Program-made: the position numbers | Assembly (NCBI RefSeq): GCF_009931435.1 | Contig: NZ_CP043414.1 | From: Escherichia coli | GTDB lineage: Bacteria; Pseudomonadota; Gammaproteobacteria; Enterobacterales; Enterobacteriaceae | Strand: one strand, 5' to 3' | Length of the DNA: 64,000 nucleotides | In this document: positions 34,333-37,300 of the stretch, one piece after another | Numbering within the stretch: position 1 is the stretch's first letter | Layout: every line of letters begins with the position of its first letter

Positions 34333-37300
34333 TTATCTTTTTGATTTATAAAGATCTGATTGAAGAATCAACAGCAACATGCCAGGATGAGTTAGCGAAT
34401 TACACTAACAAGTGGCGAATTTCATCATGGCAGAATACAAAGATAATTTACTCGGTGAGGCGAACAGCTTTCTCGAAGTGCTGGAACAGGTTTCGCATCT
34501 CGCACCGCTGGACAAACCGGTGCTCATCATCGGCGAGCGCGGCACAGGTAAAGAGCTGATTGCCAGCCGTCTGCATTATCTCTCCTCCCGTTGGCAGGGG
34601 CCGTTTATTTCCCTTAACTGCGCGGCGTTAAATGAAAATCTGCTGGATTCCGAACTGTTTGGTCACGAAGCGGGCGCGTTTACCGGTGCGCAAAAACGTC
34701 ATCCAGGGAGATTTGAACGTGCCGACGGCGGTACGCTATTTCTTGATGAACTCGCTACGGCACCGATGATGGTGCAAGAAAAATTATTGCGCGTGATTGA
34801 GTACGGTGAACTGGAGCGCGTTGGCGGCAGCCAGCCATTGCAGGTGAATGTGCGGCTGGTATGCGCGACGAATGCCGATCTCCCGGCGATGGTCAATGAA
34901 GGGACTTTTCGCGCTGACCTGCTCGACCGGCTGGCTTTTGATGTTGTGCAACTGCCACCACTGCGCGAGCGTGAAAGCGACATTATGTTGATGGCAGAAC
35001 ACTTTGCCATCCAGATGTGTCGGGAAATCAAGCTGCCTCTGTTCCCGGGTTTTACCGAGCACGCCAGAGAAACATTGCTGAATTATCGCTGGCCGGGAAA
35101 TATTCGTGAATTGAAAAACGTGGTGGAACGTTCGGTGTATCGCCACGGCACCAGCGATTATCCGCTTGATGACATTATTATTGATCCTTTTAAACGGCGT
35201 CCGCCTGAAGACGCTATCGCCGTTTCAGAAACCACCTCGCTTCCAACGCTGCCGCTGGATTTACGTGAGTTTCAGATGCAGCAGGAAAAAGAGTTACTGC
35301 AACTCAGTTTGCAACAAGGGAAATATAACCAGAAGCGCGCGGCTGAATTACTGGGGTTAACCTATCATCAGTTCCGCGCGTTGTTGAAAAAGCACCAGAT
35401 TTAGCGAAGTTGGGCAATACAACTTGCCGGATGCGGCGTGAACGCCTTATCCGGCATACATAATCAATACGTCGTTTACAGGCCTGATAAGCGCAGCGCA
35501 TCCTGCAATATTTTCATTGCCGCATCGAACTGCGCGTCCGGGATGGTCAGCGGGTACAGGAAACGAATCACGTTGCCGTACGCGCCACAGGTCAGCAGGA
35601 GCAGCCCCTGCTCCAGCGCGCGTTGCTGGATTTTCTGTGCAATCGCCGCTGACGGCTCGCCCGTTTGCGGATCGTTAAACTCTGCCGCAATCATCGACCC
35701 CAGACCGCGTACCGCCGCGATGGCCGGAACGCTTTCTTTGGCATCAATCAACGTATTTGTCAGACGCTGGCCCAGTTGATTAGCGCGTTCACAGAGTGAT
35801 TCTTTGTCGATAATGTTGAGCACCGCGTGCGCGGCAGCCACCGCCAGCGGGTTCCCGGCGTAGGTACCACCAAGCCCGCCCGGCGCGGGCGCGTCCATAA
35901 TATTCGCGTTACCGACCACGCCCGAAAGCGGCATCCCGCCCGCGAGGCTTTTCGCCATCGTCATTAAGTCCGGCTTATCGGCGTAGTGATCCATGGCAAA
36001 CAGTTTACCGGTACGCGCAAAGCCGCTTTGCACTTCATCGGCAATCATCACAATACCGTGCTCGTCGCACAGGCGGCGAATGGCGGCAACCAGCTCTTTT
36101 GGCGCAACGTTGAAACCGCCTTCGCCCTGCACCGGTTCGAAAATAATCGCCGCCACCTGCTTCGCTTCAATGTCCGATTTAAACAAGCGTTCGATGGCAT
36201 CGAGGGAGTCCTGCGTTGAAACGCCATGTAAATCTGACGGATAAGGTACGTGATACACCGAACCGGGGAACGGGCCGAAGCCGATTTTGTACGGCGCGAC
36301 CTTTCCGGTCAGCGCCATGGTCATATATGTACGACCGTGGAAGCCGCCGCTAAACGCAATCACGCCAGGGCGTCCGGTATGGGCGCGGGCGATTTTCACC
36401 GCGTTCTCCACCGCTTCCGCACCGGTGGTGAAGAACGCAGTTTTAGCCTGCCCGCTCACCGGGGCAAGGGCGTTGATTTTCTCCGCCAGGGTGACGTAGC
36501 TTTCATAGGGCACAATCTGATACGCCGTGTGGGTAAACTGTTGCAATTGCTGCTCCACCGCCGCGACCAGATCAGGGTGGCGATGCCCGGTATTCAGCAC
36601 CGCAATGCCTGCGGCGAAATCGATATATTCGTTGCCCTCTACATCCTTCAGCGTGGCGTTTTCTGCCGACTGGGCGAAGAAGTTACACATCACGCCAACC
36701 CCGCGTGGGGTAGCAGAAAGACGACGCTGATGGAATTCATTGTTGCTCATGTTTCACACCTTTTGACTCTTCACTGTTAATCGGAAATTAAACACCCAGA
36801 CGATCGCGCAGGCTGTAATAAGCCGCGCCCATCGCGGTAAATGGCACGCGCAGCGTGCGCCCGCCGGGGAACGGGTAATGCGGCAGATTGGCGAAGGCGT
36901 CGAAGCGTTCGGCGTCACCGCGCAGCAGTTCGGCAATCAGACGCCCGGCGAGATGGGTACAGGTAACGCCGTGACCGCTGTAGCCCTGCATGTAGTAGAT
37001 GTTGGTATCAAGGCGACCGAACTGCGGCATGCGCGACAAGGTCAGCAGGAAGTTGCCCGTCCAGCGGTAATCAATTTTCACGCCCTTCAGCTGCGGGAAG
37101 GTTTTCAGCAGTTTCGGCACAACAAGACGCTCAACGTCATCCGGGTCGCGCGCGCCGTAGACCACGCCGCCGCCGTACAGCAGGCGGTTATCGGCAGTCA
37201 GGCGGTAGTAATCAAGAAGATAGTTACAGTCTTCCACACAGTAGTTTTTCGGGATCAGCGAACGGGCTAAATCTTCCGACAGCCGCTCGGTGGTGATCAC

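Follow-up and report, generated by a model that had tools for sequence, protein, structure and literature searches.

A 424-residue PuuE in Escherichia coli with REP-derived terminal codons: probable origin in a 39-bp deletion

How does a protein-coding gene come to end inside a repetitive extragenic palindromic (REP) sequence? The question is raised by puuE in a 64,000-nucleotide (nt) stretch of Escherichia coli DNA (RefSeq assembly GCF_009931435.1, contig NZ_CP043414.1), which is called the window below. Here puuE converges on pspF, and the two genes are separated by a bacterial interspersed mosaic element (BIME) composed of two REPs. An earlier note, made from the sequence of the window, had claimed that the distal REP of this BIME lies inside the puuE reading frame and supplies the last residues of the protein, DALRLSGL. 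The string on which the note was based (GGCCTGATAAGCGCAGCGCATCC) is found at 35481-35503 on the plus strand and is read in the puuE frame, so that both its position and its frame turned out to be correct. Comparison with other E. coli strains suggests, with a probability of about 0.9, that the window carries a derived, lineage-specific puuE allele. In this allele a 39-bp deletion between direct repeats would have fused the open reading frame (ORF) to a REP that was already resident downstream.

The 3′ end of puuE and the missing 39 bp

On the minus strand puuE ends with CAG GAT GCG CTG CGC TTA TCA GGC CTG TAA, i.e., Q D A L R L S G L and a stop (plus strand, 35470-35509: cgtcgtttac aggcctgata agcgcagcgc atcctgcaat). 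Five undeleted E. coli strains were aligned with this region, namely K-12, a BL21-derived strain, 24A16CRGN010, H9, and R32_14_1F. Relative to them the window is without 39 bp, equal to 13 codons. The gap is clean and is flanked by CAGCGCATC, which is present there in two copies in the undeleted strains and in one copy in the window; against H9 the gap is 50 bp, because this strain has 11 extra bases there. The ancestral puuE reads ...TTG CAG GAT GCG CTG AGC GAT TAA TAG CCC AAC GCA ATA ATG TCT GAT GCG CTG CGC TTA TCA GGC CTG (C/T)AA..., which is translated as ...LQDALSD, two stops, PNAIMSDALRLSGL, and one more stop, the native PuuE having 421 amino acids (aa). In the mRNA sense, GATGCGCTG occurs twice in the ancestor, 39 nt apart, first as codons D417-A418-L419 and then as the 5′ arm and loop of the distal REP. 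Within the 205 nt of ancestral sequence examined no direct repeat is longer, and a repeat of at least 9 nt was obtained in only 55 of 2000 shuffles. A simulated deletion between the two copies of GATGCGCTG gives the window sequence except for three single-nucleotide polymorphisms located upstream in the coding sequence. The gap thus has both marks of a direct-repeat deletion, flanking repeats and exactly one copy kept.

In the aligned undeleted strains about 18 nt separate the native stop from the distal REP, whose reading in the puuE frame gives ...SDALRLSGL even without the deletion; the RLSGL tail is thereby traced to REP DNA. Since the 39 bp are 13 codons and the REP is already in frame, the ORF runs on through RLSGL. 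The ancestor would have had a puuE ending with ...QDALSD and a stop (421 aa), followed by a spacer and then by the two-REP BIME shared with the convergent pspF. The deletion between the direct repeats would have cost one repeat copy and 30 bp, with the loss of S420, D421, the native TAA, the spacer, and the 5′ arm of the distal REP. Thereafter translation would pass from the native DAL into the loop and 3′ arm of the REP (RLSGL) and reach a TAA just past it. Judging from the alignment, only R-L-S-G-L and the stop are REP-derived, while DAL is native puuE sequence that is identical to the REP core by chance. The proposal of the earlier note is narrowed in this way: the REP accounts for RLSGL and the stop but not for DAL, and the sequence in the puuE frame is REP-like, yet it is a hybrid left by the deletion and not the whole element. 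Its more general point, that a REP has shaped a coding 3′ end, is borne out by the undeleted strains, in which the tail can be seen as resident REP DNA.

It was also considered whether the repeat had invaded the gene, by transposition or expansion of a REP or BIME into the puuE 3′ end. TnpA_REP can mobilise REPs, BIME copy number differs between strains (PMC3333891), and REPs inserted into genes are known from other species (PMC3733652). However, every undeleted E. coli strain examined has the same two-REP BIME, with the same linker, at this site, and the window has less DNA, not more (its pspF-puuE spacer is 71 bp, whereas typical E. coli have 119 bp). Other genera, moreover, share the end point of 421 aa, and invasion of the gene is very improbable. 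REP-like sequence in an ORF need not mean REP insertion.

A further candidate, that the native 3′ end of puuE (GCAGGATGCGCTGAGCGATTAATAGCC) is itself an older degenerate REP, was rejected. Other genera end at residue 421 with an alignable ...ILQ... helix, the likeness is limited to GATGCGCTG, and GATGCGC is found elsewhere in the 3′ coding sequence of puuE.

The puuE 3′ spacer varies in length among the undeleted strains: the interval corresponding to a 261-nt query from the window measures 300 nt in the majority of them, 311 nt in some others, and 298 nt in a single strain. H9, the only 311-nt strain aligned (L002 401-455), has an extra CCTGCTTCTGC, and its PuuE ends with ...ALKD.

The stop codon of the new frame involves a polymorphism. 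Position 35478 is A in the window (TTTAC) vs. G in K-12 (TTTGC) and most strains, where the codon is CAA. R32_14_1F has TTTAC, i.e., the A allele, without the deletion, and the A35478 polymorphism is therefore older than, or independent of, the deletion. The same deletion simulated on the G background gives ...RLSGLQTTY and a stop, and it appears from these sequences that A or G at 35478 alone sets which of the two ends, ...RLSGL or ...RLSGLQTTY, a deletion allele has. The new TAA would exist only because the ancestor of the lineage already had A, not G, at this position.

The product itself aligns with E. coli PuuE of the PDB entry 7jh3 (421 aa) over residues 1-419 with an E value of 7e-278, the alignment ending at L419. 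PF00202 (Aminotran_3) is on record for puuE, and homologues of puuB (DAO) and puuC (Aldedh) lie upstream. Full-length similarity, domain, and puu-cluster context place the protein among class III pyridoxal phosphate-dependent aminotransferases, with the γ-aminobutyrate (GABA) transaminase PuuE. The gene order in K-12 is puuC-puuB-puuE-pspF, and puuE of the window likewise converges on pspF. On these grounds the ORF can be assigned to PuuE, which acts as GABA transaminase in putrescine utilisation. Compared with the K-12 protein it has the changes I177V, K331T, V356A, and A380E and a different tail. The positions of the features are collected in Table 1. As regards the neighbouring gene, the mechanical ORF of pspF has 330 aa with a GTG start. 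Since RefSeq gives 325 aa (978 nt) in related genomes, translation probably starts at an ATG five codons further downstream.

Table 1. Features of the pspF-puuE region of the window
Feature	Coordinates	Strand	Remarks
puuE ORF	35476..36750	-	424 aa, 4-aminobutyrate transaminase, ends ...QDALRLSGL and stop; intact (ORF list)
New TAA stop of puuE	35476..35478	-	first base is the complement of polymorphic A35478
REP-derived codons R L S G L	35479..35493	-	from the kept loop and 3′ arm of the distal REP (z-type), in the sense of the puuE mRNA; non-coding in undeleted strains
Deletion junction, single kept copy of the 9-bp CAGCGCATC	35494..35502	.	codons D-A-L on the minus strand
Distal REP remnant, hybrid (AGGCCTGATAAGCGCAGCGCATCCTGC)	35480..35506	+	second arm swapped for puuE coding sequence
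Proximal y-type REP, intact (GCCGGATGCGGCGTGAACGCCTTATCCGGCATAC)	35426..35459	+	exact consensus match; inverted repeat; hairpin -21.9 kcal/mol
pspF	34412..35404	+	convergent neighbour of puuE (ORF list; RefSeq annotation of homologous loci)

Distribution and authenticity of the allele

The earlier note had proposed a comparison of PuuE C-termini across strains and species, and this comparison makes the RLSGL tail lineage-specific. Among 134 sequences the tail is confined to the queried protein, and every other PuuE examined has 421 aa. The other E. coli proteins among the sequences examined all end with ...QDAL, then S, N, K, or R, and a final D. PuuE of Klebsiella aerogenes ends with ...ILQSVTRL and that of a more distant relative with ...ILQGTLAE, and both stop at residue 421; the PDB entries 7jh3 and 6wj8 are likewise of 421 aa. 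Conservation of the same tail in distant species, which would have spoken against a REP origin, was not found among the PuuE homologues compared. On this evidence the 421-aa PuuE is the ancestral form.

One more protein of the set, P0096, is a 424-aa K. aerogenes-like PuuE homologue with the normal ...SVTRL end and is unrelated to the REP-derived tail. Its three extra residues lie elsewhere and probably come from an upstream start call.

The allele turned out to be rare. A 76-nt query across the junction has no contiguous match in 5,426 complete E. coli genomes, and the junction 28-mer GGCCTGATAAGCGCAGCGCATCCTGCAA has 0 matches in 100,044 species-representative genomes. The puuE-puuB region is present in 4,373 of the 5,426 complete E. 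coli genomes. The lineage seems to be poorly represented among finished genomes, because the nearest complete ones are only about 99.0% identical to the window over puuE-puuB.

About 1,050 of the 5,426 complete genomes have no puuE-puuB match. In MS8345 (NZ_CP025401.1) what follows pspF is not the puu cluster but ymjA and a truncated hypothetical pseudogene, and other genomes matching only at pspF, e.g., ATCC 25922 and an O157:H7 strain, may resemble it.

Palindromic repeats can give local assembly or sequencing errors, and an artefact at the hairpin-forming repeat has to be weighed. Against it, the exact 424-aa protein, named 4-aminobutyrate transaminase, is found on at least 24 contigs of independent assemblies (NCBI, ENA, Logan; also UniRef), some of them longer than 1 Mb. 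Furthermore, of two independent assemblies, one (locus L005) is identical to the window and the other (locus L006) has a single base changed over 4,275 bp that include the junction. An artefact thus deserves next to no credence. The deletion allele is real, and for annotation purposes the 424-aa PuuE is a genuine variant, not a mis-called stop. Because the two loci are nearly identical to the window, the allele probably belongs to one clonal lineage.

The pspF-puuE BIME, the route to the deletion, and its consequences

Ton-Hoang et al. define REPs and BIMEs by features that include a GTAG tetranucleotide at the foot of the palindrome (PMC3333891). In the proximal unit GCCGGATGCGGCGTGAACGCCTTATCCGGC is matched exactly at 35426-35455 (0 matches in shuffles), and the arms of 15 nt are 87% complementary, which gives the imperfect palindrome of 30-40 nt expected of a REP. 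In the distal unit the z-type consensus GCCTGATAAGCGYAGCGCATCAGGC is found at 35482-35506 with two mismatches and 0 matches in 100 shuffles; the REP identity of this unit is beyond chance. The hybrid has ATCCTGC where the REP arm has ATCAGAC or ATCAGGC. The REP at 35426-35459 (+) and the inverted REP at 35480-35506 lie tail to tail with a 20-nt linker, as in the reference BIMEs. The pair can be aligned position by position with the BIMEs between codA and lacA and between malE and malF. Across 5,425 E. coli genomes the median number of places matched by the 261-nt query over the region is 31 per genome, and its repeated part is query 46-123, i.e., both REPs; the copy number, together with the consensus matches, is that of a multi-copy family. 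The predicted hairpin of the ancestral distal REP has -10.5 kcal/mol and that of the window hybrid, a 33-nt hairpin with two arm mismatches and an alternative fold, -7.8 kcal/mol.

The element departs from the definition in its tags and in its location. The proximal REP has ATAC for CTAC, and the tag of the distal REP, within 35475-35484, is TACAGG (TGCAGG in K-12) vs. GTAGG in the malE-malF and codA-lacA copies. Positions 35479-35506 of the distal remnant are inside the puuE ORF, while the entire BIME is extragenic in the undeleted strains. By its sequence the pspF-puuE BIME can be classed as a member of the REP/BIME family with both tags degenerate. It is degenerate and probably immobile: the altered GTAG/CTAC tags suggest an old copy that is no longer a substrate of TnpA_REP. 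A terminator scan revealed no intrinsic terminator between the convergent puuE and pspF, the BIME being the sole structured element there.

Two other places of the window carry REP sequence. At 44789-44818 (-) GCCGGATGCGGCGTGAACGCCTTATCCGGC is found again, as a y-type REP with two mismatches, downstream of an ORF ending near 44753. At 19421-19434 (+) a REP tail, CTTATCCGGCCTAC, lies between ORFs ending at 19376 and 19487.

How did the deletion arise? Because one copy of a perfect 9-bp direct repeat is kept, we infer a slipped-strand or microhomology deletion; replication slippage or another RecA-independent microhomology event would be the most likely route. In K-12, TTGCAGG (codons L-Q-D) is complementary to CCTGCAA just past the distal REP, and the native stop, the spacer, and the REP lie inside a larger predicted stem. 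This inverted repeat could bring the direct repeats together in single-stranded DNA. The window counterparts of TTGCAGG and CCTGCAA are at 35503-35509 and 35476-35482.

The same product could be expected if TnpA_REP, the REP-associated tyrosine transposase (RAYT), had cleaved each GATGCGC^TG copy at C^T and joined the ends anew. Both repeat copies do have CT on the mRNA-sense strand. The C^T sites cut by the enzyme may lie in inverted REPs (iREPs), in linkers, or as far as over 400 nt away from a BIME, and it catalyses strand exchange between such sites (PMC3333891). Its binding and cleavage, however, need an intact GTAG tag on a REP (PMC3333891), and both tags are degenerate here although they are kept in the malE-malF and codA-lacA BIMEs. 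In addition, the GATGCGCTG repeat does not fit the iREP cleavage consensus TGCC^TGAT, and cleavage needs a CT dinucleotide only, whereas slippage needs a perfect direct repeat such as the 9 bp found. A transposase origin is thus unlikely, and slippage or a related microhomology event remains the preferred route.

For the protein the net change is a gain of five residues and a loss of two at the C-terminus. It is probably neutral or nearly so for the enzyme, whose core is not altered, since the tail is past the last residue aligned between PuuE structures and the position already varies among strains. The last two residues are SD, ND, KD, or RD in E. coli, and this free variation suggests weak constraint. 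For the mRNA, the hairpin of the distal REP would be weakened by the deletion and is now presumably translated. From the new TAA to the stem of the proximal REP there are 19 nt, and the ancestral distance from the stop to the distal REP stem is 18 nt. According to the account of Liang et al. (2015) given in PMC12306157, REPs no more than 15 nt past a stop codon stall ribosomes and lower translation; an intact REP stem is within this distance neither in the window nor in the ancestor. In the predicted minimum-energy fold of the new 3′ end, base pairs form between the last codons and the proximal REP, but the stability of this 3′-end RNA does not significantly exceed that of shuffled sequences (z = -1.65).

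These data also bear on the idea that the allele is non-neutral or adaptive, the REP acting from inside the frame to re-tune or lower PuuE level or stability and hence putrescine/GABA catabolism. The routes would be ribosome-REP interference or trans-translation, stability or protection of the mRNA 3′ end, or C-terminal degradation signals. The idea draws on the hybrid hairpin, which ends at the stop codon, on the ribosome stalling that PMC12306157 relays from Liang et al. (2015) for REPs at most 15 nt from a stop codon, on the pairing in the minimum-energy fold, and on the change from the polar ...SD to the less polar ...RLSGL. The allele is, however, rare and apparently clonal, the stem spacing of 19 nt is beyond the 15-nt rule and near the ancestral value, the fold is not significantly more stable than that of shuffled sequence, and the last two residues are already free to vary. 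An adaptive allele is therefore quite unlikely. If true, it would show, in a natural setting, a REP that affects a gene from within the gene's own reading frame.

Several points weigh against the reading of the window as a neutral deletion allele of single origin produced by slippage. Slippage was deduced from the repeat structure alone, and the 9-bp repeat holds C^T, the minimal TnpA_REP site, so that transposase cleavage and rejoining would give the same product. The single origin is based on the two loci shown and on 22 places with similar neighbouring genes reported. Neutrality is assumed, although the tail goes from the charged ...SD to the largely non-polar ...SGL, and the stop codon is now at the foot of the residual hairpin. 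In any case the biological weight of the allele is small, because two to five residues at the end of a non-essential enzyme are concerned, these residues are not conserved, and the lineage is rare.

Comparison with known systems

Classical studies of E. coli lacI reportedly described deletions between short direct repeats that arise by replication slippage and are stimulated by nearby palindromes. The puuE case is similar in that the longest local direct repeat (9 bp) flanks the 39 bp, one copy is kept, and one of the repeats is in a hairpin-forming REP. It seems to be an ordinary natural example, with no unusual feature.

Ton-Hoang et al. (2012; PMC3333891), citing earlier work of Bachellier et al., distinguish the REP types y, z1, and z2 and note that BIME loci are polymorphic between E. 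coli strains. The puuE-pspF element fits this picture: it is a typical y + z tail-to-tail pair between convergent genes, and its interval varies, being 261, 298, 300, or 311 nt. The known changes, however, affect copy number or linkers outside genes, whereas one end of the puuE deletion is in the coding sequence and rewrites the end of the protein.

The translational down-regulation by REPs reported by Liang, Rudd and Deutscher (2015), as it is presented in PMC12306157 and PMC4513850, shares with puuE a REP structure beside a stop codon. The rule described there concerns an intact REP no more than 15 nt downstream of the stop, while the puuE hybrid is upstream of, or up to, the stop and would be translated through.

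Di Nocera et al. (2013; PMC3733652) described REPs inside genes and Rickettsia palindromic elements (RPEs), and Delihas (2011; PMC3184786) described small repeats that extend gene 3′ ends. As in those cases, a small palindromic repeat gives in-frame residues at the end of a known protein. In contrast to puuE, those repeats read as insertions, often adding 20-30 aa; in puuE a resident extragenic REP was apparently captured by deletion, and half of the REP was destroyed. The states before and after the capture of a resident extragenic repeat into a reading frame are both in hand here, and it was the chance 9-bp identity between the REP core and the codons GAT GCG CTG that allowed the C-terminus to be swapped by a deletion. 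Repeat-encoded gene 3′ ends are thus already documented, and what puuE adds to them is a visible route, deletion capture with no REP insertion.

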